From the NCBI GenBank assembly GCA_025357175.1, contig JANXPS010000018.1, forward strand, positions 1-38,393: a DNA stretch of 38,393 nt. The letters run 5' to 3'. The DNA comes from Deltaproteobacteria bacterium. Its GTDB lineage: Bacteria > Desulfobacterota > Deferrimicrobia > Deferrimicrobiales > Deferrimicrobiaceae. Position numbers and translations under genes: made by a program. Under the pieces are notes generated by a model. It was not told the origin of the DNA and made no database searches. It saw nothing but the letters and a program-made list of their open reading frames with translations. Below are positions 12,001 through 32,422 of the stretch, in pieces. Every line of letters begins with the position of its first letter. Within the stretch, counting starts at the first letter, position 1.

Positions 12001-14564
12001 TGACGCTCGGGGCGGGCAACGACATCGTCAACGTGCAGGGTACCGGCGCGACGGCCGCCACGAAGATCGACAGCGGCGCGGGCGACGACAAGATCTTCGT
12101 CTCCTCCGACGCCAACGTGGCCGCGCAGTGGGCGACGGACGGCTTCCTCGCGGGCGACACGTTCCGCTTCCTCGGCGGGACCGACGCACCGTCGCTCGCC
12201 TTCACGATGCCTTCCGGAGCGAAAGCGGCGCGCCTCGATATCCGCGACGCGAACGGCACGCTCGTCCGCACGATCGGCCTGGGCGACCTTGCCGCAGGCG
12301 ACTTCACGCAGAGCTGGGACGGCAGGGCCGACGACGGCCGCACCCTGGCTCCCGGCGCTTTCCGCTTCACGGTCACCGGGGAGGGCCTCGCCGGATCCGT
12401 CGTGACGGCCACCGGCACGATGGCCGGGACGCTCGACGGCCTCGCGTACGCCCTCGACGTCGAGGCGGGCGCGGGCAACAACACGCTCATGGTCAGCGAC
12501 GCCGGGTCACGGACGGGCGATACCGCAACGCTGGCCGCAGACCGCATCCTGGGGCTGTCGGACGGGGATATCACCTACGTGTCGACCGGCGGCGACTTCA
12601 ACGGCGGCATCACGGTCTGGAGCGGCTACGGCGCCGACAACATCACCGTGACCGGTTCCGCTTCCGATGTCGAAGGACGCACCGTCACGACGGTCAACAC
12701 CGGCCTGGGAGACGACCATGTTTCCGTGTCGCTCCACGCGGGCACGGACGGCTTCTTCGTCCTCAACACGCAAGGGGCGTACGACCACGACAATCTGAAT
12801 GCCGACATCACCGACAACGACACCGTCGATGCATCGGCCTCCACGCTGCCGCTGGTCATCTTCGGCGGCCAGGGCGACGACAACCTCACGGGCGGCAGCG
12901 GCAACGACATCATCTTCGGCGACCGCGGCCGGGTCGACTATCTCGACGCAGACGGCAACGTCGTCGCGACCCTCGGACGCGGCGGACTCGGCGACGCGAC
13001 GGACGGCCTGCAGCACACGGCGCTTTCCGCACACACGGTCGATCCGGCCGTCGGCGGCGACGATACGATCGATGCGCGCGAGGGCGACAACCTCGTCTTC
13101 GGCGGCGCCGCCAACGATCACATCACCTCCGGCACGGGCAACGACGTCCTGGCCGGCGACAGCGGCATCGCCACCATCGCGGCGTCCGGGGTGCTGTCCG
13201 GGGTCGCTTCGACCGACGCCGGAATCGGCGGAAACGATACGATCATCTCCGGCGACGGCAACGACGTCGTGATCGGCGGATTCGGCGGCGACACCCTCAC
13301 GGACGGAACCGGCCGCGGTTACCTGCTCGGCGACAACGGGACGGTCTCCTTCGATTCGACCGGCCGCGTGGCGATCGTCTCGACGTCGGACACCGTCGCG
13401 GAAACGGGCGGAGACGACACGATCACGACCGGCGACGGCGACAAATACGTCTTCGGGGGTGTCGGCGACGACACGATCACGACCGGCAGCGGCGACGACG
13501 TCCTCACCGGCGACAACGGTGTGCTCTCCTTCAAGAAGGACGGGACGCCGGGCCTCCTCAGGACCGTGTTGCCGTCGCTTGGCGGCGACGACACGATCCA
13601 CGCGGGCGAAGGCGACAACATCGTGATCGGCGGGATGGGGAGCGACACGCTCGACGCCGGTGCGGGTGACGACATCCTCATCGGTGACGGCGGCAGGGCC
13701 GAATGGACCGGGAGCCATTCAATCGTCGTCGAGTCGACCGATCCCTTCGTCGGGAAAGCCGATGTCCTGAACGGCCAGGGCGGGAACAACGTCCTGATCG
13801 GCGGGGCGGGGAGCGATCTCTTCTACGGCAACCTGTCCAAGGATCTGATGATCGGCGACAACGGCCGGGTGACGATTGAAAACGGGCAGGTGACGACCGT
13901 CGTCCTCATGGGTCAATATCCGCTCGACCTGATATCCTCGATCGAGTTCGGCCTCTACGGATCGCCCTGGGTCGGAGCGTCCGCCTCGGGCGGGGAAGAA
14001 AAGGCGGGGCAGGGGCTCGTGCTGCCCGAGACGATGAGGGGGGTCAGTCCCATCAACGACTTCCTGAAGACCGTGATCAACTTCTACGCACCCCGTCCGA
14101 CGGTCTGGACGGCGCCCGCGATGACGTTCCACGGCAGCGCCGCGGCAGCGCCCGCCCCGGCGACTCCGGCTCCCTCCGCCGACAGGGAGTCGGTCGAGAA
14201 ATCGATCCAGTCGCTCCTCGACTTCTTCGTCCCCGTCGCGCTGGCGGAGTCGGGGGATGAACGGATCGCCGCCTTGTGCGAAGATGGTTCGTCGACCGTC
14301 ATGACCGACGACGGCCTGATCGTGGACGCACGCCTCTCCGGCGGCGACGCCGGCGCGGCCAAGGCGCTGGCGAACGCCGCTCCGCCTTCCGCCCCGGCCA
14401 AGGAATCCGGCGAACCGGCGGCGCTCGAATCGCTGGTCGCGGGGGTTGCGGGCTGGAACGTCGCATCCAACGGCGCTTCCGACCGGAAGGTCAGGCTCGA
14501 CCGGGAGGCATTCGAGAATCTGGAACGGAAAACGCGCGAGCGCAAATTCCGCAAGTGGCACTAA
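1..14564 (+). CDS. Giant secreted mosaic repeat protein (RTX / Calx-beta-like / PPC-like adhesin-type), 5'-partial; >4848 aa in window
   Basis: Single uninterrupted frame from the window edge (no stop in codons 3-17 upstream of the listed GTG at 18) to TAA at 14562-14564. G/C-rich third positions. Readable domain content: beta-helix-like N-terminal part, many GGxGxD motifs, Calx-beta-like segments, C-terminal GGxGxDxUx nonapeptides. Confidence 0.9.
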   Translation, partial: LAVDHVSAGAEVRLKGKSGLTDGRAADSDVANVTGGDIILEGGSGGIGAPGAGNAFDVLLNGTTGLTARAANDVYITSEGDLRLMEIYSAGGTIDLRSKLSILDAYDEVTQATLAEKPFAKITGASAYLKAGDHIGTSGNAIETKLGTISATAENDIFLYEISTHAMSVGTVESTGGDVSLSADYGIEKKAGSTGANVIGDSIVLSNLMAGSIGVAGGSQDLVVKTRALTGAGVPTEDRGLSTHAFGNIYIQASGDLYLNAVSADNGGDAYISAPTGRIINGRLSGGANVTSGRTRLFANGDIGAAGNAITSEVSALEGLSIAGSFFLANSGDMTIGGITGAAKAIDAAGPVDISNACETWVEGDVESDGNVNITTDDDWQPGDEEARDEIIVRSGKTIRSTDLVHGSVTLRAGDGVKVEAGGTVASGHIVIGTVDGDGDGNVIELYGTLTAGDVLVEGGAHNDTIVITNTSSPTTVNAGGGDDTVHIGSHATPTTNTGGTTQRIAAGLTVNGGTGNDTVVVDDTGSNTARTLVLTDSTIDGISPATIHYSGLETLDIHLGNLGNTAKVRSTALDATTTITTGGGSDTIYVGSSDDGVSTVNGLAGRLILDGQVGTDTLRIDDMGDDSDNTGAMTRDSVTGLGTAGIDYTRLEAMTVDMGTGGDDFTISSVNAATSTFVNGNAGNDIVRVGTLLTDIGGPLYIQGGEGDDRLVVDNSSQTQGQEGTMLAETREGADPDTYLLSGFGLSPAGIDYRAFEKFALKLGTGDDKLYVATTIPGDNVIDLNDGNDVVNINEIDGSVVPTKTGSTTVFGGIGNDIFRVNYDGNGNQTFQNGIHGELSLHGGAGSDLYQIGLSGGGSSIINVTDLAPSNDLGINIMEVYGTNLPDYFLFRPNTIASVELGAERQPLPGGGIERINYDRSLNGGINVYGRDGDDTFVFDETSAPLTVYGDGGNDTFQVGQMFKSQRDAAAGLAPEDTFETIATTQGYLSNGASEPLTLYGGTGDDSFTVYHTGAELFLFGEAGDDTFRVHAFVKIDPNDLKKPFTNINGGQGSDFITYTVNAPVNIDGGDGFDTLTIVGSEFGDDFVITDKGIYGAGFPVRYTGLEKITVDGMQGNDTFFIESTPENVQLEIVGGLGSDTFNIGGSNGQPVTVVGKNMDGHSGLIDNDINAALSSADYANLFVPDVSAIIADADSAGVVIRPVDDTTTLLEGGTTLMTYAVVLARQPEEDVRVTATQSKPNESDAKAGGKGVLLNGCADGVTLLFSRDNWYVPQYVTVSAPADALAEGTKSYVIQHTAVQGADPNDGGAYDGVKVASLKTTVLDGDQAGVMVTQTNGGTAVAEGASDVNGTSRTDTYQVVLTQKPTGTVHIVLTNADGRLLLDGSPATASADDTVNRFELTFDETNWNVAQTVVVASAGPDGVVQGNAYSRITQRVDSNDLSAFYALSVDNVASNLSGKLAGEVTQDYATSYDPATRILSVTGSGFSASASFKYSAYADPSALEITDSAPSGSKWLEAGVTLSGTPEAGQSWSLVLNGKSYSYNVEEGDSLQYVEHVLSLQAGVRGYATSFDGTSISITAKDGSAFSASLKIDGVLTPGQIAVEGTRALGRVDIQLGDSAALGNVWTVTLNGKAYAFTAGGNRTAEEIAPLDVLVADADTPGVLVTQTGGNTQVIEPTDYSVIGSGAVTSAIDGSHFIADFGQSVLQETSSLHDTIDSAQDLDLGKWSLNANTEIQQAGEIPHITLQAAGDNTPDYYKFTVTQKMIADATDGKVSVILDVDHGYEDGDTVFWGSQITLFDAAGQVMTDTSRTVSPLDWTVNSDSNGHPISMGTGFSDPATAGAGGSSTYLDDYLAWDVTSAGTYTVKVDNWLSWYTYWQTGSTTGVPQGTDYDLQVSVENHGTNNFRFSPDPIFEAEPVNNVSQNIDATGNWSTFYDPKVGNTDYTGGLTGSSTPYVKIIGSGDGSKDVYQFTVTSDMLNPTSTDNVTGPTVAGSYYKSADLVFRGAGSVGDVWTLTLDGKDYSYTATTASLSEVVIGLEATLPTGTAGYGLSTGTTGETGDTLSISLANGFRIDGLKRVAADAGTTSRLETTGGTAFTHADIALGGTVSPGGRWTLTVGGNVYFRDIGATAVGQDVIAADIVSQITGDSGATFTASVDSVDDRLIHIDAKAGNTAGFTVAFMQSGSSAQLLSGTADISGTPVQSTASTVRWSTADLVLQGSAVQNETWRVTLGLIQINSAMVSSTDTLDDVGADLMGKINSDSRTKDDYVAAYSADSKTLEIKLKAGGSVKSFTAAIDILPGSRGTITAGSGVVTHGITLTGTPAAGQIWSLVADAGSAGKTTVTQVVDATHDTLGKIAESLAGKLVAANSDYRAVDDNGTVVASNVNNDAFTVTSTVNPLLSSADVSTSVRTVSLTGTVVTGEKWTVSFDINGTADSVEHLVADSATEMLADIAKDLSDKLVAKGCTSVSVGGTVIVEGLASGDTVTASTTSAGTVTADDSNASARTLDLAGTRTKDEVWTMSIMSGATVLGTASHTVGANGESLTTIALDLATQLSAGDYGAVSDSGRVTVAGLASGSAFTLTYTVDGVAGSATDSAATVHRFNIGGTAGTGETFSITEGTTTRTHVAADGQLPGAIATDFATKLTTGNYKAFASGGSVVIVRIDSGTYGASTSSVSKGGVDTVSTPKATAFTLEGTPASGQIWSASISGGGPSTSHPFATGDTVPKIATALASGLVGSGYVAYATGDTVTVCKIDGSSFTATFTLSPGGSAATVATSIIALGGTASIGETWSVSVDGGGPVASHIVAANGEAMSVIAADLVGQLNGTETDGYTAVYKNGKIVVSKVGAASLTITKPPVQSPPSAGSVLFKGTPKTTFSQSASLLDVDGVADGKCASDDQWTITVGGHTFTWPATVSGTPTDASVDLDTVAAGLAGLLNGSAYGYTATATNHSVSVSKADGSSLSVGDVSVSIKRAGTTPVTESDTRTHYSTAHVFLSSAADVVHSGDVWSIAVNGRTFRYTVPNVDPDHYVYSSDLNINLVAQGLADAINAANLSFSASNSSNEVTINDRDGVLTGPSQTITVDTRRGDGTVRSIFDIDSVTENVGFIVADGGVHYYIDRPTLTLLKDGNPTPLAYSNGSTLVDKGSQSTDDPFLDYKIASAGSYSVQVGTVRHYTDGFRPDAELGVVAPGISYQLDVSVPEHAYNHDILGLVGKQVRITGGTGMGESATITKYDAERKQFTIDSTWATLPDDTSIIEIGTASAIPPAVDTYSVVLSSAPQGDVVVDVVPQATRTYNSAKAFDPASNFGQSNIVQVKAATTQAMFHLSGTATDGLDWTVTLNSGSYTATGADLATVAANLADEINKDIRFTATVGEDGVTLFVTSDDRFYAGASLEAGLQGSVTVTPQLRFTAGNWGTPQSVEVQGLADHLVDGSDALVFPAFADRVNAIRGPVTIDGGIKINAERSLNDPFLLPGETNYPKADGSLSGFGFIDIDGVRYATLTDASATHVDPGVGIKDGFDPRMNGYPYAFTILSGPDKGAVYDVKQVLLDGDGNPTGTIVLDIAYDSVAAGSRPGSGDSYFYAPVNRNFLVTETDQVDTLNVFNGNSPSDDTGVLTGTHIGGLGMGGDTVIGGSPIQGGIDYRNIEALNIDLGSGNDTFTVESTHAGSTAINTGAGNDVVTVKTISGHTTISTGAGADVVNVGSDNGIVDQIAGLLAVNMGGNSGDKLAAVNTGDSGDNVATVTGTTITGLDMPTVGSVQSVYVQARTGSFALSAAGYGQIMVEYGTSASDVQAALNDLFGTADDVKVAESRDVRYGELWSVSYNVTFVDSLAGTAIPQLAWVEGQGGLTGYPDSSAYVRVSTAVDPQAPPQLPSVQTVTVHATEGTFRIGFALDPTDPSAITYTGDIKAGASGDDVLKALSAVLDPNNVHPDRPYTKNVAVRQFGDDYVITFQGAQRTLTISGIVNDTDGSVTCATRMNGINYYGVDTLDLTLGAGNDIVNVQGTGATAATKIDSGAGDDKIFVSSDANVAAQWATDGFLAGDTFRFLGGTDAPSLAFTMPSGAKAARLDIRDANGTLVRTIGLGDLAAGDFTQSWDGRADDGRTLAPGAFRFTVTGEGLAGSVVTATGTMAGTLDGLAYALDVEAGAGNNTLMVSDAGSRTGDTATLAADRILGLSDGDITYVSTGGDFNGGITVWSGYGADNITVTGSASDVEGRTVTTVNTGLGDDHVSVSLHAGTDGFFVLNTQGAYDHDNLNADITDNDTVDASASTLPLVIFGGQGDDNLTGGSGNDIIFGDRGRVDYLDADGNVVATLGRGGLGDATDGLQHTALSAHTVDPAVGGDDTIDAREGDNLVFGGAANDHITSGTGNDVLAGDSGIATIAASGVLSGVASTDAGIGGNDTIISGDGNDVVIGGFGGDTLTDGTGRGYLLGDNGTVSFDSTGRVAIVSTSDTVAETGGDDTITTGDGDKYVFGGVGDDTITTGSGDDVLTGDNGVLSFKKDGTPGLLRTVLPSLGGDDTIHAGEGDNIVIGGMGSDTLDAGAGDDILIGDGGRAEWTGSHSIVVESTDPFVGKADVLNGQGGNNVLIGGAGSDLFYGNLSKDLMIGDNGRVTIENGQVTTVVLMGQYPLDLISSIEFGLYGSPWVGASASGGEEKAGQGLVLPETMRGVSPINDFLKTVINFYAPRPTVWTAPAMTFHGSAAAAPAPATPAPSADRESVEKSIQSLLDFFVPVALAESGDERIAALCEDGSSTVMTDDGLIVDARLSGGDAGAAKALANAAPPSAPAKESGEPAALESLVAGVAGWNVASNGASDRKVRLDREAFENLERKTRERKFRKWH
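1431..3445 (+). repeat. About 19 dispersed calcium-binding-like G-G-x-G-x-D-T/D-hydrophobic repeats inside the giant CDS
   Basis: Read in translation: NAGGGDDTVHIGS, NGGTGNDTVVVDD, TGGGSDTIYVGS, QGGEGDDRLVVDN, YGDGGNDTFQVGQ, YGGTGDDSFTVYH, FGEAGDDTFRVHA, VGGLGSDTFNIGG and others, spaced about 30-60 aa apart. Confidence 0.6.
3579..4325 (+). other. Two consecutive Calx-beta-like domains in the giant CDS
   Basis: ADADSAGVVIRPVDDTTTLLEGGTTLMTYAVVLARQPEEDVRVTA...WYVPQYVTVSAPADALAEGTKSYVIQH, then DGDQAGVMVTQTNGGTAVAEG...YQVVLTQKPTGTVHIVLT...WNVAQTVVVASAGPDGVVQGNAYSRITQRV. Pattern recognition only. Confidence 0.45.
4560..10210 (+). repeat. Array of about 14 degenerate 88-114-aa modules centred on G-x-x-x-G-(E/Q/D)-x-W-(S/T)-hydrophobic, interrupted by PPC-like domains
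   Basis: Conserved Trp codons at 4602, 4884, 6048, 6351, 6693, 6999, 7287, 7572, (Phe at ~7860), 8127, 8391, 8718, 9045 and 10029. Each is followed about 20-30 aa later by an amphipathic L-x-x-I/V-A-x-x-L-A-x-x-L segment and then by a G-x-x-V-x-V...F-T strand pair. Confidence 0.6.
12201..12386 (+). other. FlgD Ig-like (FlgD_ig-type) domain embedded in the giant CDS
   Basis: FTMPSGAKAARLDIRDANGTLVRTIGLGDLAAGDFTQSWDGRADDGRTLAPGAFRFTVTG matches the characteristic 'v.I.D..G..Vr.l.lG....G...f.WDG.d..G......G.Y.f.v' pattern. Confidence 0.45.
12861..13875 (+). repeat. C-terminal RTX (hemolysin-type Ca-binding GGxGxDxUx) nonapeptide block with a higher-order ~60-aa period
   Basis: FGGQGDDNLTGGSGNDIIFGDRG; GGDDTIDAREGDNLVFGGAANDHITSGTGNDVLAGDSG; GGNDTIISGDGNDVVIGGFGGDTLTDG; GGDDTITTGDGDKYVFGGVGDDTITTGSGDDVLTGDNG; GGDDTIHAGEGDNIVIGGMGSDTLDAGAGDDILIGDGG; GQGGNNVLIGGAGSDLFYG. 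Confidence 0.85.
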
Positions 14565-14589: not shown

Positions 14590-14892
14590 ATGGTGCAGGA
14601 CAAGAAGAACGTTCAGGAAACCAAGGCGCCGGCCGGCGGTACGCAGATCCGCTGGGACCACTCCAAGATGGAGACGACCTACGCCAACGTCTGCAACGTG
14701 ACGAGCACGCGTGAGGAGGTTTCGGTCCTCTTCGGAACCAACAAGACGCTCAACGTGGGCCAGCCTGGCGAGATCATCGTCGAACTGACCGACCGGATCG
14801 TCATGAACCCGTTCACCGCCAAGCGCTTCTCCGCGGTCATCAACAAGGTGGTCGCCGATTACGAAGCCGCCCACGGCCCGCTGCCGCTCTAA
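14590..14892 (+). CDS. DUF3467-like small protein (100 aa), paralog 1
   Basis: ATG at 14590, 9 nt after AGGAG (14576-14580). The upstream part of the listed ORF (from 14446) overlaps the giant gene. Core is YANVCNVTSTREEVSVLFG...VELTDRIVMNPFTAKRFSAVINKVVADYEAAHGPL. The DUF3467 assignment is from memory of that family's pattern. Confidence 0.8.
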   Translation: MVQDKKNVQETKAPAGGTQIRWDHSKMETTYANVCNVTSTREEVSVLFGTNKTLNVGQPGEIIVELTDRIVMNPFTAKRFSAVINKVVADYEAAHGPLPL

Positions 14893-14945
14893 GGCGCAGG
14901 ATCCACCGGGAGTAACGACCACGTCCGAATGAGGAGCCTTTTTTC

Positions 14946-15281
14946 ATGAGCAATCGTCCGAAGACCGAAGAGAACCAGACCGCCGAAACCCGTCCGAATC
15001 CCGCCGACGGCCCCCGGATCCAGTGGGACCAGTCGAAGATGAAGACCACCTACGCGAACGTGTGCAACGTCTCCAGCACGCGCGAGGAAGTCTCGATCAT
15101 GTTCGGAACCAACCAGTCGATCAACCTCGGGCAGGGAGAGATCACGATCGAACTGACCGACCGGATCATCCTCAACCCGTACGCCGCCAAGCGCCTCGCC
15201 CAGATCCTGGCGGGCATCGTCAAGCAGTACGAGGCCGCGTTCGGTCCCCTCCCGATCGAGGGCGAAGGTAAATCCCACTGA
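14946..15281 (+). CDS. DUF3467-like small protein (111 aa), paralog 2
   Basis: ATG at 14946 preceded by GAGGAG (~14931-14936). About 60% identical to the preceding gene over an ~83-aa core by my hand alignment (YANVCNVSSTREEVSIMFG...IELTDRIILNPYAAKRLAQILAGIVKQYEAAFGPL). Confidence 0.8.
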   Translation: MSNRPKTEENQTAETRPNPADGPRIQWDQSKMKTTYANVCNVSSTREEVSIMFGTNQSINLGQGEITIELTDRIILNPYAAKRLAQILAGIVKQYEAAFGPLPIEGEGKSH

Positions 15282-15319
15282 TCGTCGAAGGAGAGGACAC
15301 TCCCGGCTCCCGGGCGTCA

Positions 15320-17140
15320 TTGTGGGAGCGATTCCGTGACGCGCAAGGCGACGATTATCTCCATTACTGGCTGGCGCTGCAGTCCGGCCTGATCGAAGGG
15401 GCGGTCCAGGGCCTTCTCGTGATGGGAACGCCCGGGGCCGGTCCCCCGGTCCCGGTCGCCCGCTGGCCGGAGAGCGGGGCCGATCCAGTCCGGCTGGCCG
15501 AGATCTGCGAGCGCGTCCTCGAAGAGCCCGGCGGTCTCCTCTGCACCTTGCCTGCGCGACCCTCCGAACCGTCGTCCGGAGGGTCGCAGCCGTTTGCGAT
15601 CGCCTATCCCGTCCTGGTGGGCGGCGAGTCGCACGGCGTCGTCGCGTTCGAGGTCGCCGCGATTTCCGAAGAGAATCTGGCTCCGGCCATGAACCAGCTC
15701 CAGTGGGGCGTCTCCTGGCTCGAGCTTTTCGTCCGCCGGCGCAATGCGCAGGACAACGATTCCGTACTCTCCGAAATGAGATCCTCCTTCGACCTTTTGG
15801 CGGCGGTCGTCGACGAGGAGCCCTCCAGCGCGTGGATGCGCTTCGTCACCGAGCTGGCCACGCGGATGCAGTGCGACCGTGCCAGCCTGGGGACTCTGAA
15901 AGGGCACCAGGTCACCGTCCGGGCGATTTCCCACAGCGCCCAGTTCGACCGGAACACGAACCTGGTCCGGCTGATCGGGCGTGCGATGGAAGAGTCGGTG
16001 CTGCAGCGGGACGAGGTGATCTTCCCCCCCCCCGAAGGCGGAAAGATTCTCGTAACCAAGGATCACGACGAGCTGTCCCGCGAACAGGGGGGCGAGGCGA
16101 TCCTGACGATCCCCGTCTACTCGGGCGGGCGGTATACGGGTGCATTGACGCTCGAGCGTCCCGCCTCAGTCCCGTTCGGGGAAACCGAGGTCGGCATCTG
16201 CCGCGGAATCGTCGCGCTGGTCTCCCCCATCCTCGAGCTCAAGCGGCAAAACGACCGCCCCCTGGCGTTCAAGGCCGCGGAATCTCTCCGGGAACAGGCG
16301 GTCCGCCTCTTCGGGCCCCGTTACCCAGGCCGCAAACTGGCGATCCTCCTCGCCTTCGGCGTCGCGTATTTCCTCGCCACGGCCACCGCCGATTACCGGA
16401 TCACCGCTACGGCGGTCCTCGAACCGCTGATCCGCCGCTCGGTCGTCTCCCCCTTCAACGGCTACGTCAAGGAGGCGTTCGTCCGGCCCGGAGACATCGT
16501 CCGGAAGGCGGCGCCGCTCTGCACGCTCGACGACCGCGATCTCCATCTCGAGCGCGCCAAGTGGCAAAACCAGAAGACCCAGTACGAGCGCCAGCAGCAG
16601 GAGGCGGCGGCCACGAACGACCGCGCGAAGGCCAAGATCATCGCCTCCCAGTTCGAACAGGCGGTCGCCCAGCTCGACATGGTCGACCGTCAGCTCAAGC
16701 GGACCAGCCTGGTGGCCCCCTTCGACGGAATCGTGGTCAGCGGCGACCTGAGCCAGCGGATCGACGGCGCCGTCGAGCAGGGCGAGGTGCTGTTCGAGGT
16801 CGCCCCCTTGAACGCCTACCGGGTCATCCTCCAGGTCGTCGAGTACAAGATCGGCGACGTGCATCCGGGCCAGACGGGGGAACTCGTCCTTCCGGCGCGC
16901 ACCGACCTCAAGTACCGCTTCACGGTCGAGAAGATCACCCCGATCGCCTCGCAGAAGGACGGCCAGAACTATTTCCGGGTCGAGGCCAAGCTCGAAGGTT
17001 CGGGCGTGGCCGACCAGACGCTGCGGCCGGGCATGGAAGGGGCCGGAAAGATCCAGGTCGGCCGCGGGAAGCTGCTGGCAATCCGCACGCGCGAACTGGT
17101 CGACTGGGTACGCCTCAAGGTCTGGGCCTGGCTGCCTTGA
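15320..17140 (+). CDS. HlyD-family periplasmic adaptor with a ~330-aa cytoplasmic tandem GAF-like N-terminal region and one TM segment
   Basis: First start after the in-frame TAA at 15269 is TTG at 15320; ATG at 15422 is an alternative. GAF-like segment: FVTELATRMQCDRASLGTLKGHQVTVRAISHSAQFD...LTIPVYSGGRYTGALTLER. TM: LAILLAFGVAYFLATATA. HlyD lipoyl/coiled-coil/barrel: GYVKEAFVRPGDIVRKAAPLCTLDDRDL...LVAPFDGIVVSGD. Confidence 0.8.
   Translation: MWERFRDAQGDDYLHYWLALQSGLIEGAVQGLLVMGTPGAGPPVPVARWPESGADPVRLAEICERVLEEPGGLLCTLPARPSEPSSGGSQPFAIAYPVLVGGESHGVVAFEVAAISEENLAPAMNQLQWGVSWLELFVRRRNAQDNDSVLSEMRSSFDLLAAVVDEEPSSAWMRFVTELATRMQCDRASLGTLKGHQVTVRAISHSAQFDRNTNLVRLIGRAMEESVLQRDEVIFPPPEGGKILVTKDHDELSREQGGEAILTIPVYSGGRYTGALTLERPASVPFGETEVGICRGIVALVSPILELKRQNDRPLAFKAAESLREQAVRLFGPRYPGRKLAILLAFGVAYFLATATADYRITATAVLEPLIRRSVVSPFNGYVKEAFVRPGDIVRKAAPLCTLDDRDLHLERAKWQNQKTQYERQQQEAAATNDRAKAKIIASQFEQAVAQLDMVDRQLKRTSLVAPFDGIVVSGDLSQRIDGAVEQGEVLFEVAPLNAYRVILQVVEYKIGDVHPGQTGELVLPARTDLKYRFTVEKITPIASQKDGQNYFRVEAKLEGSGVADQTLRPGMEGAGKIQVGRGKLLAIRTRELVDWVRLKVWAWLP
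16024..16033 (+). repeat. Poly-C tract of 10 nt inside the GAF-HlyD CDS
   Basis: Sequence reads ...gatcttCCCCCCCCCCgaagg... and encodes F-P-P-P-E. It is the longest homopolymer I found in the window. Confidence 0.95.
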
Positions 17141-19296
17141 GCGGCACGCGCGAACAATCCCTTTACAGCCCATCGTGGTACCGGATCGCCGGCCTGAAAC
17201 CGCGGCTGCGGGGGCACGTCCGGATCCACCGCCAGTACTTCCGCGAGCGGGAATGGTTCGTCCTGCAGGACCGTTCCACCGGCCGCTTCCACCGGATCTC
17301 CCCCGAGGCGTACTACCTCGTCGGCCTGATGGACGGCAACCGGACGATGACCGAGATCTGGGACGCCGCCTGCCTCCGGCTGGGCGACGCCGTGCCCACG
17401 CAGGACGAGGTGATTTCCCTGCTGTCGCAGATCCATCGCTTCGACGGCCTTCAATCCGACCTGCCGCCCGATATCGACGACCTGTCCGACCGTTCCGCGA
17501 AAGAGAAACGGTCGAAGCTCTTCGGCTACATCGCCTCCCCGACCTCCTTCAAGATTCCGCTGCTCGACCCCGACCGCTTTCTCGACCGCACCATCGGCCT
17601 GGTGCGCCCCTTCCTCGGTTGGGGCGGTTTCCTCGCCTGGCTCGCGGTGGTCGGGTACGGCCTCCTGCTCGCCGGCATCCACTGGCGCGAACTCACCTCG
17701 AACGTCACCGACCGGATGCTCAGCGTCGAAAACCTCGTCGTCCTGTCGCTCGTCTTCCCGATCGTGAAGACGCTCCACGAACTCGGCCACGCCTATGCCG
17801 TCAAGCGCGGCGGGGGCGAGGTGCACGAGATGGGGATCATGCTCCTGGTGTTCGTCCCCAACCCCTATGTCGACGCGACCGCCTCATACGCCTTCCGGAC
17901 CAAGTATCCGCGCATGTTCGTCGGCGCCGCCGGGATCATGGTCGAGCTGTTTCTCGCGGGCCTCGGCGCGATCGTGTGGACCAGCGTCGAGCCTGGCGCG
18001 CTGCGGGCGGTCGCCTTCAACACGATGGTGCTGTGCGGCGTATCGACGCTCGTGATGAACGGCAATCCGTTGATCCGCTACGACGCCTACTACATCCTTT
18101 CCGATTACCTCGAGATCCCGAACCTGGGGGCGCGCTCCACGGAATATCTCGGCTATTTCCTCCGCCGCCGGATTCTCGGGATCAAGGAGGCGACACCCAC
18201 GGCGAACGGCGCAAGAGAAGCGTTCATCCTCGCGTCCTACGGCGTCGCCTCGTTCATCTACCGGATCTTCGTCATGTCGGCGATCGCGATGGCGATCGCG
18301 GGCCGCTTCTTCGTGGTCGGGACGATCCTCGCGATCTGGGTGGTCGGCGGATTCGTCGCGATCCCCGCCTGGCGGGCGATCCGCACGATGGGCTCCGATT
18401 CCCTCATGCGCCGCTACCGCGTGCGGGTGGTCCTGGCGGCGACCGTTCTTGCGGGAGTCGTCCTGTTCGCCACCTTCGGTGTCCCCGTCCCCTCGTTCAC
18501 CGTGGTCGAGGGGGTGACCTGGGTCCCCGCGGAATCGCAGATCAACGCGACGGCGGACGGCATCGTCAACGCGCTCCTGGCCGCTCCGGAATCGGTCGTC
18601 CACCGGGGCGACCCGCTGATCCGGATCGAGGCGCTGAAGCTGGAAAAGGACGTCCGCGTCCTCGAGGGCTCGCTGCGCGAGGCCGAATCGCGCTACCAGG
18701 CCAGCCTCGTCTCCGACCGCACGGCGATGGGAATCTACCGGGACGACATGGAAAAGGCACGCCTTGAGCTGACGCGCTCCCGGGAAAAGCTCGGAGGGCT
18801 TCTCGTGCGCAGTCCGGCCGACGGGCTGCTGCTCATCCCGTCCGCGGCCGACCTCCCCGGCCGATACGTCAAGAAGGGCGAGGGGCTGGGCTACGTGGTC
18901 GACTTCCCGAGGGCGGTCGTCCGGATCGCCGTCGACCAGGACGACGTCGAGCGGATCCGCCGGAGGGTCACGAAAGTCGAGGGCCGGCTCGCCGGGGCGA
19001 TCGGAACCGTCATTCCCGCCACCGTCGTCCGCGAGGTGCCCACCGCATCCAACGATTTGCCGAGCCAGGCGCTCTCCGTCGCCGGCGGCGGTCTGATTGC
19101 CGTTTCTCCGGAGGGGGGCGGGCGGAAGCCGAAGTCGATCCGGCGATTCTTTACTTTCGACATCGCCCTGAAGGACGCCCCGATCCGGCGTGTGGGCGAA
19201 CGCGCGTTCATCCGCTTCACCCATCAACCCGAGACGCTGGGAGACCGCTGGATCCGGTCGCTCCGCCGGCTCCTGCTCAGCAAGTTCGACCTGTAG
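17137..19296 (+). CDS. Three-part fusion: PqqD/RRE-like N-domain, polytopic peptidase M50 (site-2-protease-type, HELGH) domain, C-terminal HlyD-type adaptor domain
   Basis: TTG at 17137 overlaps the upstream TGA (TTGA, 17137-17140). The upstream part of the listed 1197-aa ORF overlaps the previous gene. PqqD-like: FHRISPEAYYLVGLMDGNRTMTEIWDAACLRLGDAVPTQDEVISLLSQIHRFDGL. HELGH at 17776-17790, followed by VFVPNPYVDAT. Multiple TM helices. HlyD-like C-terminal part: RGDPLIRIEALKLEKDVRVLEGSLREAESRY...LLVRSPADGLLL. Confidence 0.8.
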   Translation: MSGTREQSLYSPSWYRIAGLKPRLRGHVRIHRQYFREREWFVLQDRSTGRFHRISPEAYYLVGLMDGNRTMTEIWDAACLRLGDAVPTQDEVISLLSQIHRFDGLQSDLPPDIDDLSDRSAKEKRSKLFGYIASPTSFKIPLLDPDRFLDRTIGLVRPFLGWGGFLAWLAVVGYGLLLAGIHWRELTSNVTDRMLSVENLVVLSLVFPIVKTLHELGHAYAVKRGGGEVHEMGIMLLVFVPNPYVDATASYAFRTKYPRMFVGAAGIMVELFLAGLGAIVWTSVEPGALRAVAFNTMVLCGVSTLVMNGNPLIRYDAYYILSDYLEIPNLGARSTEYLGYFLRRRILGIKEATPTANGAREAFILASYGVASFIYRIFVMSAIAMAIAGRFFVVGTILAIWVVGGFVAIPAWRAIRTMGSDSLMRRYRVRVVLAATVLAGVVLFATFGVPVPSFTVVEGVTWVPAESQINATADGIVNALLAAPESVVHRGDPLIRIEALKLEKDVRVLEGSLREAESRYQASLVSDRTAMGIYRDDMEKARLELTRSREKLGGLLVRSPADGLLLIPSAADLPGRYVKKGEGLGYVVDFPRAVVRIAVDQDDVERIRRRVTKVEGRLAGAIGTVIPATVVREVPTASNDLPSQALSVAGGGLIAVSPEGGGRKPKSIRRFFTFDIALKDAPIRRVGERAFIRFTHQPETLGDRWIRSLRRLLLSKFDL

Positions 19297-19309
19297 CGGC
19301 GGCCTTCCC

Positions 19310-21301
19310 ATGCTGCGCGACCTCCTCGACCATCCGCCGGCCACGCACGAGAATCGCTCCGAGCGTCCGGATCCGACGCCGGGCGCCCTCGAGTCGGCTT
19401 TCGACGCCGTCGGCGGGTTTGTCGGGCGGCTGATCCGCTCCCGCCTCCGCAGTCCGGATCGAATCATTTCCCTCGTGGCGTCGCACGCCGGTGAAATGAC
19501 CCGGATGAGCGACGATGGATTGCGCGCCGAGGCGGGCCGGCTCGGCGCCGAAATGCGGCGAAACGGCTTCCGCGACGACCTGGTCGGCCGCACGTTCGCG
19601 CTGATCCGCGAGACGGCGACGCGGACGGTCGGCAAGCGCCACTACGACGTCCAGCTCATGGGCGGGTGGGTGCTGCTTTCGGGTTCGGTCGCCGAGATGG
19701 AAACGGGCGAGGGGAAGACGCTGACGGCGACGCTGGCCGCCGGGACGGTCGCGCTCGCCGGCGTACCGGTCCACGTCCTCTCGGTCAACGACTACCTCAC
19801 CGCGCGCGACGCCGAGGAAATGGGGCCGGTCTACCGGGCGCTGGGTCTCCGCGTCGGATGCGTCGTCCACGACGTGGCGCTCGACAGGCGGCGCGAGCAA
19901 TACCTGTGCGACATCGTCTACTGCACGAACAAGGACGTGGTGTTCGACTACCTGCGCGACCGTCTGGTGCTCAAGGAGTTCGGCGGGATGCCGCTGCGCC
20001 TGCAGGCCGAGGCGCTCTACGAACAGGGGGCGCGGAGCCGTCGCCTCATGCTGCGCGGCCTGCATTACGCGATCACGGACGAGGCCGACTCCCTCCTGAT
20101 CGACGAGTCGCGAACGCCGCTGATCATCTCGGGCGCGGTGGTCGGCCGCGACGAGATCCGTTTCCTAGAGGATGTCCTCGACTTCGCCAGGGCGCTCGAA
20201 AACGGCACCGACTTCAAGCTCGACCTGAACAAGCGCATCGTCGTCGTGACCGCGGAGGGCGACCGCAAGATCGACGACTTTCCCCTGCCGACCGGGTCGC
20301 CCTGGATCAACAGCATCCGCAAGAACGAAATGGTCCGGCGCGCGGTCTCGGCGCTCTACCTGTTCGACCGCGACAAGGAATACCTGGTCCGCGACGGCAA
20401 GGTGCAGATCATCGACGTGTTCACCGGCCGCGTGATGCCAGACCGTTCGTGGGAGCAGGGGCTGCAGCAGCTCATCGAGATCAAGGAAGGGTGCGAGCCG
20501 AGCACCCAGCAGGATACCGTCGCCAAGATCAGCTACCAGACCTTCTTCCGGAAGTACCGCCACCTCTCGGGGATGACGGGCACCGCGAAGGAGGTCCGGG
20601 GAGAGCTGGGGACGGTCTACGGCCTGCCGGTGATCCGGATCCGGACCCACCGGGCGCTGCGGCGGCAGAAGCTTCCCACGCGCATCGTGGCGACGATCGC
20701 CGGGAAGGAGCAGTTGCTGCTTCAGCGGATCGGCGAGATCCACGCGACGGGGCGTCCCGTCCTCGTCGGCACCGGCTCGGTCGCCGCCTCCGAGCGGCTG
20801 AGCGCGTTTCTTGCCGGGGTGGGATTGCCGCACCGGGTCCTCAATGCGAAGAACGACCGGGAGGAGGCGGCCATCGTCGCCCGCGCGGGGGAAATGGGCT
20901 CGGTCACCATCGCCACCAGCATGGCCGGCCGCGGCACCGACATCAAGCTCGGCCCCGGCGTCGAGGCGCTCGGCGGCCTCCACGTCATCCTGACCGAACG
21001 CAACGAGGCCGCGCGGATCGACCGACAGCTGGCCGGCCGTTGCGCGCGCCAGGGAGACCCCGGCATCTACGAGGAGATCCTGTCGCTCGAGGATCCGCTG
21101 CTCGAAGGCGGAGCGGGGGCCGCGGCGTGGATCCTCCGGCGGATTCCCTCGGGGTCGCCCCTGTGGTCGTTCGTGGCCGGGTCGGCGATCGACCGGGCCC
21201 AGAAAAGGACGGAAAGCCACTACCGGCGGATGCGGCGCGACCTCTTCCGGCAGGATTCCCAGTCGAAAAACCGGATGTCATTTTCCGGCCGCGAGGAGTA
21301 A
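19310..21301 (+). CDS. SecA-like DEAD-motor ATPase, C-terminally truncated relative to canonical SecA (663 aa)
   Basis: ATG at 19310; the listed ORF start at 19190 overlaps the previous gene. SecA signatures: EMETGEGKTLTATL (GEGKT at 19706-19720), VHVLSVNDYLTARDAEEMG, IVYCTNKDVVFDYLRD, LHYAITDEADSLLIDESRTPLIISG (DEAD at 20078-20089), SGMTGTA, VLVGTGSVAASERLS, LNAKNDREEAAIVARAG, TIATSMAGRGTDIKLG, GGLHVILTERNEAARIDRQLAGRCARQGDPG. Confidence 0.9.
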   Translation: MLRDLLDHPPATHENRSERPDPTPGALESAFDAVGGFVGRLIRSRLRSPDRIISLVASHAGEMTRMSDDGLRAEAGRLGAEMRRNGFRDDLVGRTFALIRETATRTVGKRHYDVQLMGGWVLLSGSVAEMETGEGKTLTATLAAGTVALAGVPVHVLSVNDYLTARDAEEMGPVYRALGLRVGCVVHDVALDRRREQYLCDIVYCTNKDVVFDYLRDRLVLKEFGGMPLRLQAEALYEQGARSRRLMLRGLHYAITDEADSLLIDESRTPLIISGAVVGRDEIRFLEDVLDFARALENGTDFKLDLNKRIVVVTAEGDRKIDDFPLPTGSPWINSIRKNEMVRRAVSALYLFDRDKEYLVRDGKVQIIDVFTGRVMPDRSWEQGLQQLIEIKEGCEPSTQQDTVAKISYQTFFRKYRHLSGMTGTAKEVRGELGTVYGLPVIRIRTHRALRRQKLPTRIVATIAGKEQLLLQRIGEIHATGRPVLVGTGSVAASERLSAFLAGVGLPHRVLNAKNDREEAAIVARAGEMGSVTIATSMAGRGTDIKLGPGVEALGGLHVILTERNEAARIDRQLAGRCARQGDPGIYEEILSLEDPLLEGGAGAAAWILRRIPSGSPLWSFVAGSAIDRAQKRTESHYRRMRRDLFRQDSQSKNRMSFSGREE

Positions 21302-21311
21302 CCTCCTGAAT

Positions 21312-22064
21312 ATGATGAGAATGAAGCGCTTTCTAGCAGTCGTTTGCCTAGCCGGAATCCTGTCGCCCGTCCGGCCCATGGCCGCTCCGCGCGCGATTCC
21401 CGCCGAGGAATTCGACGCGATGATCTACCCCAACGAGACCGTCAAGCTGAGCAGCCAGATCGCCGGAATCCTCGAGGAGGTCTCCGTCGAAAGAGGGGAC
21501 GTCGTCAAGGCGGGACAGGTCGTGGCGCGTCTCAAGGCCGGCGTCGAAAAGGTCGAGGTCGCCCTCGCCGGCGCCAATGTCGACTACCAGAGGCGCAAGA
21601 TCGAACGGAACGCCGAGCTGGCCCGGAAGAAGCTGATTTCCGCGCAGGAGAACGACGACCTCGAGGGCGATCTCAAGAAGGGCGAGCTGATCCTCCAGGA
21701 GGCCGGGGAAAAGCTCAAGATGCGGACCATCCTCTCGACCGTCGACGGCGTCGTGACCGAACGGTTGCTGTCGCCCGGCGATTACGTGGGCGAGGCACCC
21801 ATCCTCAAGATCGCCAGCATCGATCCGCTCAAGGTCGAGGTCATCGTCTCGGCCCGCAAGTACGGATCGATCCGCAAGGGAATGCGCGCCGAGATCCGTC
21901 CCGAGGCGCCGGTCGGCGGCCTCTATTACGGGAAGGTCACGATCGTCGACAAGGTCATCGATCCGGCGAGCAGCACATTCGGCGTCCGGATCGAGTTGGC
22001 CAACCCCGGCTTCCGGCTGCCTTCGGGGCTGAAATGCCGCGTCCGGTTCCTCAAAGAGCCTTGA
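21312..22064 (+). CDS. Small periplasmic membrane-fusion (HlyD/RND-adaptor type) protein with signal peptide (250 aa)
   Basis: ATG at 21312 (ATGs at 21315 and 21321 are alternatives), with GAGGAG at 21293-21298. Signal peptide MMRMKRFLAVVCLAGILSPVRPMAA. Lipoyl-like GILEEVSVERGDVVKAGQVVARL, a short coiled coil, TILSTVDGVVTERLLSPGDYV and a beta-barrel segment. Confidence 0.8.
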   Translation: MMRMKRFLAVVCLAGILSPVRPMAAPRAIPAEEFDAMIYPNETVKLSSQIAGILEEVSVERGDVVKAGQVVARLKAGVEKVEVALAGANVDYQRRKIERNAELARKKLISAQENDDLEGDLKKGELILQEAGEKLKMRTILSTVDGVVTERLLSPGDYVGEAPILKIASIDPLKVEVIVSARKYGSIRKGMRAEIRPEAPVGGLYYGKVTIVDKVIDPASSTFGVRIELANPGFRLPSGLKCRVRFLKEP

Positions 22065-23170
22065 TCCCCGTCCGCCCCGACATATTCGACGTGACCGGCT
22101 CCCGCGAGGCGATCTCGATCGATTTCGGGACGGTTTCCGGCCTTGGTCCCGATCGGAACGGCGTGGCCGCCACGCTCGAGACGCGCGTCATCATGTCGCC
22201 GCTGATCGCCGCCCGCGTCGCCACGCTTCTCGAAAACAACATCCGCAAATACGAGGCCGCCTTCGGCGAACTGACGCAGGAAGTGCCGCCCCGGCCCGTG
22301 GGCCGGACCGAGTCCGACCTGCTGTTCGACCCGGTGCCCGGCCTGAGCATCGACGGAAGCGCCGACCGGGCCGCCTTCCTGTTCGAGTCGGTCGAGCGTC
22401 TCGGCATCCCCTACGCCTACGAACGGTCGTTCAAGCTGATGGCCGGCACGATCCTCCCGAACCGCTTCCTGTGCGGGGTCAAGAAGGGTTTCCTCGGGGA
22501 CGGATCCGACGGGATCCTGATCGAACTCTGCCGCAAGATCGGGATGCCGCCGCAGTTCCTCGAAACGTTCGCAAGCCGTGTCCAACACGCCGACTACGTC
22601 CATTTCGGCTTCGAAGAGGGCGTTTCCGGCTGCATCTACAAGGTCTACATCGAATTCGACGTCGGCCTGAAGCGGGAGCATGTCGACCTCCGCCACATGC
22701 CGGCGGAACCGTTCGAACTCCACATCGCGTTCAAGTGGTCTCCCGCGGACGAGTCGGTCCGCGCCGTTTCCCGGTACACCGGTTTTCCATTCATGACGAA
22801 GGAAACGATCGAAGGGCGGATCGCCGACATCTGCCGCGACGCGCCGGACGGCGAGTGCCTCGGACTGACGGGCCGCCTCCTCGACCGGGTTTACGGAAAG
22901 CTGCCGCTTCACGGTTTCTTCTACGTCGAGGTCCGGGAGGAGGGCAACCCGAGGGTTTCCTTCGACGTGAAGGTCTACGAGGCGGGAATCCCGATGCGGG
23001 AGATCTTCCCGATCGCCGACGGCTACCGCAGGCACTTCGCCATTCCCGACGACCGCTTCCTCCCGCTGTACGAGCGGATCGGCGATTCGACGTTCGGGCA
23101 CGTCACGGGGGGGATCGACCGGAGCGGGAACGAGTTCCTGACGCTCTATTTCGGAGTCGAGTGGCGCTGA
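22061..23170 (+). CDS. DUF3467-like N-terminal module (~75 aa) fused to an unrecognised ~290-aa domain
   Basis: TTG at 22061 overlaps the upstream TGA (TTGA, 22061-22064); GTG at 22091 is an alternative. N-terminal IFDVTGSREAISIDFGT...LETRVIMSPLIAARVATLLENNIRKYEAAFGEL aligns with the two small paralogs. The listed ORF start at 21344 overlaps the previous gene in another frame. Confidence 0.75.
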   Translation: MIPVRPDIFDVTGSREAISIDFGTVSGLGPDRNGVAATLETRVIMSPLIAARVATLLENNIRKYEAAFGELTQEVPPRPVGRTESDLLFDPVPGLSIDGSADRAAFLFESVERLGIPYAYERSFKLMAGTILPNRFLCGVKKGFLGDGSDGILIELCRKIGMPPQFLETFASRVQHADYVHFGFEEGVSGCIYKVYIEFDVGLKREHVDLRHMPAEPFELHIAFKWSPADESVRAVSRYTGFPFMTKETIEGRIADICRDAPDGECLGLTGRLLDRVYGKLPLHGFFYVEVREEGNPRVSFDVKVYEAGIPMREIFPIADGYRRHFAIPDDRFLPLYERIGDSTFGHVTGGIDRSGNEFLTLYFGVEWR

Positions 23171-28207: not shown

Positions 28208-28225
28208 GGACCGGTGCCCGATCCG

Positions 28226-29512: not shown

Positions 29513-29636
29513 CGAGCGATTCCTCCGATATGACTTCCCGCTTGAAACCCGCGGGGGAAAGGTTCGTAATGTTAATCAGGGTATCAATCGGGACGGCAAC
29601 CTCCAGACCAACGTTAACAACCGGAGGTACGAAGCG

Positions 29637-29939: not shown

Positions 29940-29948
29940 CGGGCCGGG

Positions 29949-32366
<2,418 letters not shown>

Positions 32367-32422
32367 ACCTGTACTGTCGACCCTGTCCGTCTGTTATCTA
32401 TCGGCAAAACGCGCGCGGATGT

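Follow-up and report, generated by a model that had tools for sequence, protein, structure and literature searches.

Directly downstream of an open reading frame (ORF) for a giant RTX-type protein, contig JANXPS010000018.1 of a Deltaproteobacteria bacterium (assembly GCA_025357175.1; Desulfobacterota, Deferrimicrobiaceae) carries seven genes, here termed g1 to g7, which encode two small DUF3467 proteins, two inner-membrane proteins with periplasmic membrane fusion protein (MFP) domains, a SecA-like ATPase, a short secreted MFP-type adaptor and a DUF3467 fusion protein. The stretch of 38,393 nucleotides that was analysed is referred to as the window. The locus belongs to a module that was predicted in 2015 by Kamneva, Poudel and Ward (PLoS One, PMC4452313) and that is experimentally uncharacterised. 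In light of the conserved synteny, the absence of an ATP-binding cassette (ABC) pump, the linkage to TolC-family genes and the giant proteins encoded next to it, the module is best read as a machine that spans the envelope and serves in export and processing, with an ATPase derived from SecA. We hold with moderate confidence that its dedicated function is to export and process the adjacent giant, for which it would employ a TolC-family channel and no ABC pump. The points that are new in the present analysis are the proposed assignment of LEPR-XLL proteins as cargo, the reading of g4 as a putative recognition element (RRE) and leader peptidase, the occurrence of TolC-family genes within the operon of some relatives, the likely role of DUF3467 proteins as accessories, and the prenyltransferase fold predicted for g7.

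Gene order and distribution of the module

An earlier interpretation of the window, based on the DNA alone (the sequence-only reading), had placed seven same-strand genes behind the giant ORF after a gap of 25 nt, with further spacings of -4 to +53 nt. These coordinates were confirmed: from the giant ORF through g7, the intergenic gaps are 25, 53, 38, -4, 13, 10 and -4 nt (Table 1). Two TTGA start/stop overlaps occur within the g1-g7 string, and neither an internal promoter-like site nor a terminator-like site on the plus strand was found there. The best explanation of this layout is that the giant gene and the seven downstream genes form one putative operon.

The gene set is widely distributed. 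A search for the g4 family yielded 5,721 of 8,000 scored candidates at E <= 0.001, and in a scan covering one genome per species, g4 relatives were present in at least 593 GTDB species, which belong to the Desulfobacterota, Alpha-, Beta- and Gammaproteobacteria, Acidobacteriota, Myxococcota, Omnitrophota, Flavobacteriales and Phycisphaerae. Carriers of the module include rhizobia, Methylobacterium, Pseudomonas, Vibrio, Accumulibacter, relatives of Geobacter and Omnitrophota. Related loci were labelled L001 to L092; 84 loci were used for the synteny counts and 92 sequences (1.67 Mb) for the search for ABC proteins. The gene for the GAF-MFP protein (corresponding to g3) adjoins that of the M50-MFP protein (corresponding to g4) at all 74 loci with room for it, four automated misses having turned out to be ORF-extension artefacts, while a SecA-like gene is located downstream of the M50-MFP gene in 72 of 74 loci and a short MFP gene is present in 59 of 67. 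The arrangement across the 84 loci is far beyond chance, and the gene set, whose co-occurrence in other genomes had been raised as a question by the sequence-only reading, is syntenic across phyla.

Giant proteins recur next to the module. At L001 to L004, genes for giants of 5,365, 5,340, 17,800 and 9,463 aa are followed by those for GAF-MFP, M50-MFP, SecA-like and short MFP proteins, with DUF3467 encoded between giant and module in three of the four, and an open-ended giant ORF fills the upstream flank in 31 of the 46 loci with a complete flank. At some loci, the giant is encoded downstream or divergently transcribed. Large upstream ORFs of L047, L062 and L073 were considered as cargo and turned out to encode HrpA-type helicases. 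In several records the homologous modules are plasmid-borne.

As had been claimed for the string of seven genes, and likewise in the rest of the window, no ABC pump, resistance-nodulation-division (RND) pump or TolC gene was identified by Pfam and by phmmer, for which the sequence of the MalK nucleotide-binding domain (NBD) served as the ABC query. A major facilitator superfamily (MFS) transporter gene at positions 32423-33652 is located on the strand opposite to the module and is unrelated to it. Over the 92 sequences, the same NBD search revealed no HlyB-type ABC protein and, at four loci, five small stand-alone NBD ORFs that have no position in common. A nearby type I secretion system (T1SS) had been named as an alternative explanation; upstream of the giants on three annotated plasmids carrying related modules, neither a T1SS nor anything ABC-like was present. 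TolC-family genes were found inside or beside the module at six loci (L011, L026, L027, L031, L042 and a Methylosinus plasmid). The genes of the Methylosinus plasmid follow one another as giant, DUF3467, GAF-MFP, PqqD/M50-MFP, SecA-like, MFP and TolC.

A further gene that occurs in or beside the module belongs to the SapC family (L032, L041, L045, L056, L069, L070, L078, L079 and L089:22242-23063); on a Pseudosulfitobacter plasmid it lies between the M50-MFP and the SecA-like gene. SapC is an accessory of the S-layer T1SS locus of Campylobacter fetus. With respect to annotation, the SecA-like gene is labelled 'prepilin peptidase' by RefSeq on two plasmids (L085:22213-24129, L089:23056-25080), while other plasmids have it as 'hypothetical protein' or 'DEAD/DEAH box helicase'. 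The homologues of g4 appear as 'site-2 protease family protein', 'PqqD family protein' or 'HlyD family efflux transporter periplasmic adaptor subunit'. Searches that rely on annotation do not reveal the module.

The locus predicted by Kamneva et al. (PMC4452313), for which META1p2402-2399 of M. extorquens AM1 is an example, consists of genes with GAF, Peptidase_M50, secondary SecA_DEAD and HlyD/Biotin_lipoyl domains, sometimes with an outer-membrane efflux protein (OEP), and has no ABC gene. It was proposed that the SecA_DEAD protein, which is secondary to the canonical SecA and has lost wing and scaffold, was co-opted as the ATPase in place of the ABC component and that the M50 protein is a possible membrane pore. 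In the window, we similarly identified a wing-less SecA_DEAD protein, a protein with M50, HlyD and transmembrane (TM) segments, a GAF-HlyD protein and a short HlyD/Biotin_lipoyl protein, with no ABC gene, and the four core genes are in the same order as in the 2015 locus; the two DUF3467 genes and the DUF3467-prenyltransferase fusion are additional in the window, the context of which is Desulfuromonadota-like and related to Geomonas. The sequence-only reading had known of no characterised system with this gene set, which overlooked the 2015 prediction but agrees with our finding no experimental characterisation. The 2015 study names no substrate and makes no mention of RTX proteins, giant cargo, LEPR-XLL, DUF3467, PqqD or tailoring enzymes. 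In the part of a 2021 T1SS review that was accessible to us, the module is not mentioned.

Table 1. Positions of the giant ORF, the genes g1 to g7 and two sequence motifs in the window.
Feature	Position	Strand	Basis and remarks
Giant RTX-type ORF, 3' part	1..14564	+	Open at left end; at least 4,853 codons; presumed cargo
Cargo C-terminal motif: hydrophobic 'LVAGVAGW', basic tail ending RKFRKWH	14427..14561	+	Comparison of cargo C-termini
g1, DUF3467 protein, 100 aa	14590..14892	+	Pfam PF11950, E 7e-21; strong AGGAG ribosome-binding site upstream
g2, DUF3467 protein, 111 aa, paralogue of g1	14946..15281	+	Pfam PF11950, E 3e-22
g3, inner-membrane adaptor: cytoplasmic GAF, one TM segment (aa 340-358), periplasmic MFP/HlyD	15320..17140	+	Pfam, TM prediction
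g4, PqqD-like N-domain, M50-type intramembrane metalloprotease core, periplasmic MFP	17137..19296	+	NCBIfam, alignment, TM prediction
HELGH zinc-binding motif of g4	17776..17790	+	Invariant in alignment of relatives
g5, SecA-like ATPase, 663 aa: NBD1, preprotein cross-linking domain (PPXD), NBD2, start of scaffold helix	19310..21301	+	Pfam, SecA alignment
g6, short secreted MFP-type adaptor, 250 aa, signal peptide	21312..22064	+	NCBIfam, Pfam
g7, DUF3467-like domain and ABBA (PT-barrel) prenyltransferase-like domain	22061..23170	+	Pfam, AlphaFold2 (AF2), Foldseek

Component proteins of the putative exporter

The presence of a truncated SecA-like ATPase, as proposed earlier, was clearly supported. 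Pfam assigned SecA_DEAD (E 3e-97), SecA_PP_bind and P-loop_SecA to g5, and the protein aligns to residues 23-605 of the 841 residues of Bacillus subtilis SecA (E ~1e-134) with the GEGKT, DEAD and GRGTD motifs intact. From the end of this alignment at residue 605 and the established domain boundaries of SecA, it follows that g5 has neither a wing domain nor a two-helix finger nor a C-terminal tail. It has in common with SecA and SecA2 the NBD1-PPXD-NBD2 core, Walker A, DEAD motif and arginine finger, but differs from them in the loss of the wing, the two-helix finger and the C-terminal linker/zinc finger and in its NCBIfam SecA/SecA2 scores of 567.6, 557.1 and 480.3, which are below the respective cut-offs of 814, 800 and 930. 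In contrast to SecA2, its gene is linked to MFP and M50 genes and not to secY2 or asp genes. Thus, g5 is, as judged from its motifs, a catalytically intact SecA-type ATPase without the parts that insert into SecY and bind SecB. The truncated architecture, the plasmid-borne homologous modules and the literature (PMC4452313) argue for an accessory and not a housekeeping role of the SecA-like gene, the latter having been a concern of the sequence-only reading.

In a Burkholderiales-type sub-clade, the SecA-like gene is degenerate (L028:12161-14092; also L035, L060 and L076). Here, Walker A is changed from GEGKT to DESRR, DEAD to EDAD and GRGTD to AERSI, at 26% identity to g5, and the product is probably an inactive pseudo-ATPase, which is hard to reconcile with a motor function in all modules. 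At these loci the short MFP is encoded on the opposite strand and a Trp halogenase gene is adjacent.

The g4 protein had been described as a fusion of PqqD, M50 and HlyD domains. Its HlyD part (Pfam HlyD_3) and the HELGH motif were verified, whereas the Pfam Peptidase_M50 match remained weak (18 bits at a cut-off of 27 bits) and PqqD was not significant in g4 itself but in 10 of 12 close relatives. However, residues 22-418 cover nearly the whole NCBIfam model daptide_HExxH (NF041824; E 2.5e-44, 152 bits, cut-off 300), and in an alignment of 12 g4 relatives both the HExxH residues H214, E215 and H218 and the N308, P311 and D316 of an NxxPxxxxD motif are invariant; as judged from the sequence, the M50 active site is intact. 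About seven TM segments are predicted between residues 163 and 449, the PqqD-like domain is cytoplasmic, and the C-domain, which is periplasmic, most closely resembles MacA, EmrA and MexA. PqqD-like domains are the classic leader-peptide recognition elements of pathways for ribosomally synthesised and post-translationally modified peptides (RiPPs). With the daptide protease (NF041824) and YydH/LiaK (NF058609), g4 shares the HExxH motif, the polytopic core and, at the level of its family, the PqqD-like N-domain; it differs from the daptide protease in its score of about half the cut-off, in the fusion to a periplasmic MFP domain, and in a presumed substrate of thousands of residues as opposed to a short peptide. 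The fusion of a PqqD-like domain to a leader-peptidase-like M50 core suggests that g4 may bind and remove an N-terminal leader.

Of the tandem GAF, TM segment and HlyD domain postulated for g3, one GAF domain (Pfam, E 5e-7), the TM segment and the HlyD region (HlyD_3/HlyD_D23) were recovered. The second GAF domain was not: only one passes Pfam, the first 170 aa are only faintly GAF-like and the internal similarity is marginal (E 0.13). The GAF region of g3 probably gates or docks the motor. For g6, the proposed adaptor of 250 aa with a signal peptide was borne out by NCBIfam TIGR01730 RND_mfp (119.8, above the cut-off of 94.9), by Pfam HlyD_D23, HlyD_3 and Biotin_lipoyl_2, and by a hydrophobic, signal-peptide-like N-terminal segment at aa 7-25. 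The module hence has three proteins with MFP domains (g3, g4 and g6).

Presumed cargo and putative accessory and tailoring proteins

In the visible part of the giant protein of the window, Pfam assigns aa 4051-4127 to the Ig-like FlgD_ig domain and recognises, near aa 4351, four HemolysinCabind stretches of RTX nonapeptides, both towards the C-terminus; no TM segment is predicted in it. A metagenome scan with its first 500 residues in the window revealed no relative, and a protein search with its last 300 aa returned three matches only, swamped by low-complexity words. A common feature of the module-adjacent giants is located at the N-terminus: a LEPR-XLL motif was present in all nine visible N-termini, in which a basic region, 20-70 residues long, precedes the pattern [FLM]-[ED]-x-[LM]-E-[PQS]-R-x-L-[LF]-[SN]-A. 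It was seen at L011, L040, L042, L054, L070 and L092 and in the giant of the Methylosinus plasmid (8,847 aa). The NCBIfam model NF012209 ('LEPR-XLL domain') scored above its cut-off in four of five giants scanned, and two plasmid-encoded giants, one of 10,603 aa in Pontibrevibacter and one of 12,918 aa in Pseudosulfitobacter, are annotated as 'LEPR-XLL domain-containing protein' by the Prokaryotic Genome Annotation Pipeline (PGAP), with the motif visible in the alignment of both. A hydrophobic Sec-type signal core was found in none of the nine visible cargo N-termini. Of the two cargoes considered by the sequence-only reading, the adjacent giant or the small DUF3467 proteins, the former gained support from the LEPR-XLL neighbours, and the latter did not, as the DUF3467 core is conserved and the gene often absent. 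The giant protein, and not DUF3467, is therefore probably the cargo of the module, and the targeting signal is probably the N-terminal LEPR-XLL region, which would suit the PqqD-like and M50 domains. Literature searches yielded no paper linking LEPR-XLL to a secretion machinery and no functional study on DUF3467, LEPR-XLL, DUF4347 or the combination of SecA, HlyD and M50.

Cargo C-termini are also conserved to some extent. The C-terminus of the window giant reads ...LVAGVAGWNVAS...RERKFRKWH, with an 'AG-x-x-GW' stretch followed by a basic tail. A strict [RK]R[FY]xx[WY] motif occurs within about 45 aa of the end in 13 of 39 cargo C-termini, carriers of the C-terminal motif including the giants of L001-L004, L008, L020, L037, L038 and L046, and looser variants occur in others. 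Other clades have Trp-containing C-termini of the types NPNAxLR(V/I)QI (Burkholderiales, Pseudomonas) and (I/V)xW (rhizobia).

Among the related loci, L042:5142-22097 from an Omnitrophota metagenome-assembled genome (JAFGTC010000218.1) encodes an OEP, an MFP, DUF3467 and the GAF-MFP and M50-MFP proteins, and directly behind these genes comes that of a LEPR-XLL giant with a length of at least 3,153 aa. A separate SecA-like gene is missing from this locus, which ends before the C-terminal part of the giant, the place where an embedded SecA domain would be expected. West-Roberts et al. (2023; bioRxiv 10.1101/2023.11.21.568195) described giant proteins of Omnitrophota and Actinobacteria that contain wing-less SecA_DEAD and PPXD domains, for which they suggested a role in the export of the giant itself. 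The window locus is similar in that a wing-less SecA module is tied to giant proteins, but its SecA-like protein is encoded by a separate gene, and the neighbours of the giants with embedded domains are type II secretion and carbohydrate import genes and not HlyD, M50 or GAF genes. L042 may link the module to these Omnitrophota giants.

The two paralogous DUF3467-like proteins of about 100 aa that had been proposed were verified by Pfam (Table 1). An alignment of 34 module-linked DUF3467 sequences has a mean column identity of 52% and an 80-residue core with 12 invariant positions, and variable residues are limited to short ends (0-12 tail residues). About 32 of the 84 loci have a small DUF3467 gene, which is missing from Geomonas and from more than half of the loci; members of the subfamily on further long contigs likewise lie between giants, TolC and module. 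The predicted fold, three strands followed by a long helix, is of low confidence for g2 alone (AF2 predicted local distance difference test, pLDDT, 59) and of high confidence within g7. These features would fit a conserved cytoplasmic accessory or adaptor protein and not a secreted substrate or RiPP precursor. A role of DUF3467 as RiPP precursor or cargo was rejected, given that conservation extends over the entire core and that many loci have no such gene. A SecB-like chaperone was likewise unsupported: Foldseek gave no significant match for g2, SecB being at E ~0.7 and a TM-score of ~0.17. A DUF3467 profile search against the PDB returned no match.

For g7, the proposed fusion of a DUF3467-like module to another domain was confirmed, most of the DUF3467 domain being matched at the start of the protein (E 3e-9), whereas the C-terminal domain, earlier described as unrecognised, could be assigned. 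The AF2 model of g7, which was built on an alignment of 60 family members and has a pLDDT of 89, shows five beta-beta/alpha-alpha repeats over the 270 residues at the C-terminus. Each of the 50 PDB matches listed by Foldseek is an ABBA prenyltransferase (probability 1.00, E 7e-7 to 1e-4), including CdpNPT and IptA as well as the peptide prenyltransferases LimF, PagF, PatF and KgpF. According to the model, the domain adopts the ABBA (PT-barrel) prenyltransferase fold, and conserved K, R and Y residues face inward on the strands of the barrel. The likeness to ABBA prenyltransferases lies in the predicted ten-stranded barrel of alpha-beta-beta-alpha repeats; the differences are a sequence identity of only 10-15%, the absence of a Pfam or PDB sequence match, and the fusion to DUF3467. 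The g7 family comprises 837 representatives after clustering at 50% identity. The relatives of g7 are duplicated in tandem or occur as fusions, the partner being a Trp-halogenase domain at L065 and a P-loop kinase-like domain at L063, and they adjoin radical SAM and O-methyltransferase genes. It seems that the pathway includes tailoring enzymes that are brought in via the DUF3467 domain; that g7 prenylates the cargo is speculation.

Tailoring-type genes near the module encode radical SAM proteins, O-methyltransferases, P-loop kinase-like ATPases, flavin-dependent Trp halogenases and g7-like proteins of prenyltransferase fold. They were observed at L003, L005, L006, L021, L063, L065, L028:15114-16745, L076:14868-16457 and L090:1093-2624, and these neighbours suggest a RiPP-like flavour of the respective loci.

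Proposed export scheme, alternative explanations and neighbouring genes

Based on these findings, a scheme for the export of the giant might be proposed. The PqqD-like (RRE-type) domain of g4, the clamp of the SecA-like motor or both would capture the basic leader, which ends in F-E-x-L-E-P-R-x-L-L-S-A. With the N-terminus leading, the motor would then thread the chain in its unfolded state through a conduit in the inner membrane around an oligomeric M50 core, where the M50 site of g4 might cut off the leader. From there, the chain could pass through a tube formed by the MFP domains of g3, g4 and g6 and through a TolC-family channel encoded elsewhere in the genome, and Ca2+-driven folding of the RTX repeats outside may help to pull it out. 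Given an N-terminal signal and a processive motor, export might even take place during translation, before a chain of 5,000-18,000 aa is complete. The DUF3467 domain of g7 might tether the prenyltransferase-like tailoring enzyme to the pathway, and an ABBA prenyltransferase might lipidate the conserved C-terminal tryptophans and so anchor the adhesin. The sequence-only reading had a SecA-type motor take the place of the T1SS ABC component. Its ABC-less gene set has proved to be syntenic, while the motor, channel and cleavage steps are what we infer from the domain content. The full N-terminus-first, leader-cleaving and SecA-driven scheme is put forward tentatively and is rated as less likely than not.

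Several points weigh against export by the module, or against parts of this scheme. M50 proteases are not known to form pores, and no component of the module is a proven protein-conducting channel. The window lacks a TolC gene, and the N-terminus of its giant lies outside the window, so that its LEPR-XLL tag is inferred from relatives. At 12 of the 46 loci with a complete flank, no giant is encoded immediately upstream. In the sub-clade with the degenerate SecA-like protein the motifs are destroyed, and ATP hydrolysis by this protein cannot drive export there. The conserved C-termini and RTX repeats of the cargo could reflect a C-terminal signal or a retention function. In exponentially growing M. 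extorquens AM1, only the GAF gene of the locus was clearly expressed (PMC4452313), and our literature search found no experimental study of the module.

Some of these observations would be accommodated if a conventional T1SS encoded elsewhere exported the giant by a C-terminal signal, and the module only processed, tailored or regulated it, for instance by removing the leader and by controlling release or retention in the manner of LapG/LapD. Such a division of labour is consistent with the RTX repeats and conserved C-terminal motifs of the cargo, with the recurrence of SapC, a T1SS accessory in Campylobacter, with the degenerate SecA-like protein of one sub-clade, and with a regulatory function as suggested by the GAF domain. 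The module resembles the T1SS (HlyBD-TolC, or LapBCE for giant RTX adhesins) in its MFPs, in a presumed giant RTX cargo without a Sec signal peptide, in a putative TolC dependence, as suggested by in-cluster genes in some relatives, and in SapC-type accessories. However, it differs in the absence of an ABC transporter, in a SecA-derived ATPase and a conserved N-terminal cargo tag, the latter being unusual in T1SS substrates, and in the number of MFPs, of which it has three and the T1SS one; two of the three are fusions with cytoplasmic or membrane modules. Three MFPs, often with a TolC of its own, would be needless for a purely cytoplasmic processing function, and no HlyB-type ABC protein was encoded near the 92 loci or upstream of the three plasmid giants. 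We therefore regard this explanation as unlikely. Roughly as improbable is a two-step route in which the SecA-like ATPase feeds the giant to SecYEG in the manner of SecA2 and the MFPs and TolC take it up from the periplasm. For such a route it speaks that g5 is a bona fide SecA homologue with a PPXD and an intact ATPase site, that its clade is sister to actinobacterial SecA2 (PMC4452313), and that MFPs of the MacAB type, to which the C-domain of g4 is most similar, can take periplasmic substrates; yet g5 is without the two-helix finger, wing domain and C-tail by which SecA acts at SecY and SecB, the cargo N-termini are devoid of a hydrophobic signal-peptide core, and a membrane partner of its own is suggested by its strictly conserved gene linkage to a polytopic M50-MFP fusion.

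It might further be asked whether the giant is a mere neighbour and the module a RiPP-like pathway in which the PqqD-like domain recognises DUF3467 or another peptide, which would be tailored by prenylation, methylation, radical SAM chemistry or halogenation and, after cleavage by the M50 protease, exported. The resemblance of g4 to the daptide leader peptidase and YydH/LiaK, the PqqD domain in its family, the fusion of DUF3467 to a domain resembling ABBA peptide prenyltransferases, and the recurrence of radical SAM, O-methyltransferase and Trp-halogenase genes point in this direction. However, DUF3467 has no hypervariable core peptide and is missing at most loci, RiPP exporters normally carry an ABC pump, and it is the LEPR-XLL giants that are the constant neighbours, which makes a peptide pathway highly improbable.

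The export of bacterial proteins of 5,000-40,000 residues is a puzzle. A T1SS depends on the C-terminus of its substrate, and thus the whole chain first has to exist unfolded in the cytoplasm. If the full scheme holds true, the module would represent an alternative route with a SecA-derived motor and an N-terminal tag, possibly a secretion pathway in its own right for the largest proteins of bacteria, and would unify the 'secondary SecA_DEAD' locus of 2015, the orphan LEPR-XLL tag and the SecA domains embedded in Omnitrophota giants. The link to LEPR-XLL provides the orphan locus with a concrete and testable substrate and the tag with a candidate machine for its recognition and processing. If confirmed, the module would constitute a new class among the tripartite TolC-dependent systems and possibly a means to secrete very long recombinant fibrous proteins.

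The remainder of the window encodes YhdP-like, GGDEF, TolB-like, hybrid kinase, MFS transporter and methyl-accepting chemotaxis (MCP) proteins. A gene for a YhdP/AsmA-like protein of 1,208 aa (23146-26772, minus strand) converges on g7, their 3' ends overlapping by 25 nt; YhdP-type proteins are envelope-spanning lipid transporters, and at other loci no link of this gene to the module was seen. Long ORFs at 34737-36044 (minus), 36202-37305 (plus) and 37484-38365 (minus) have no Pfam match; at 66% G+C, spurious antisense ORFs are common in this part. In the region 26930-33652 (minus), the GGDEF protein is a cyclase that carries a Tll0287-like sensor, the TolB-like protein is a beta-propeller and the hybrid histidine kinase has PAS; the MFS transporter gene is also located there, and an MCP gene at 34168-35703 (plus) joins this signalling-rich neighbourhood. 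Genes for kinases and response regulators also flank the module at L002, L005, L011 and L046, and the GGDEF gene of the window is of interest given the GAF domain of g3.

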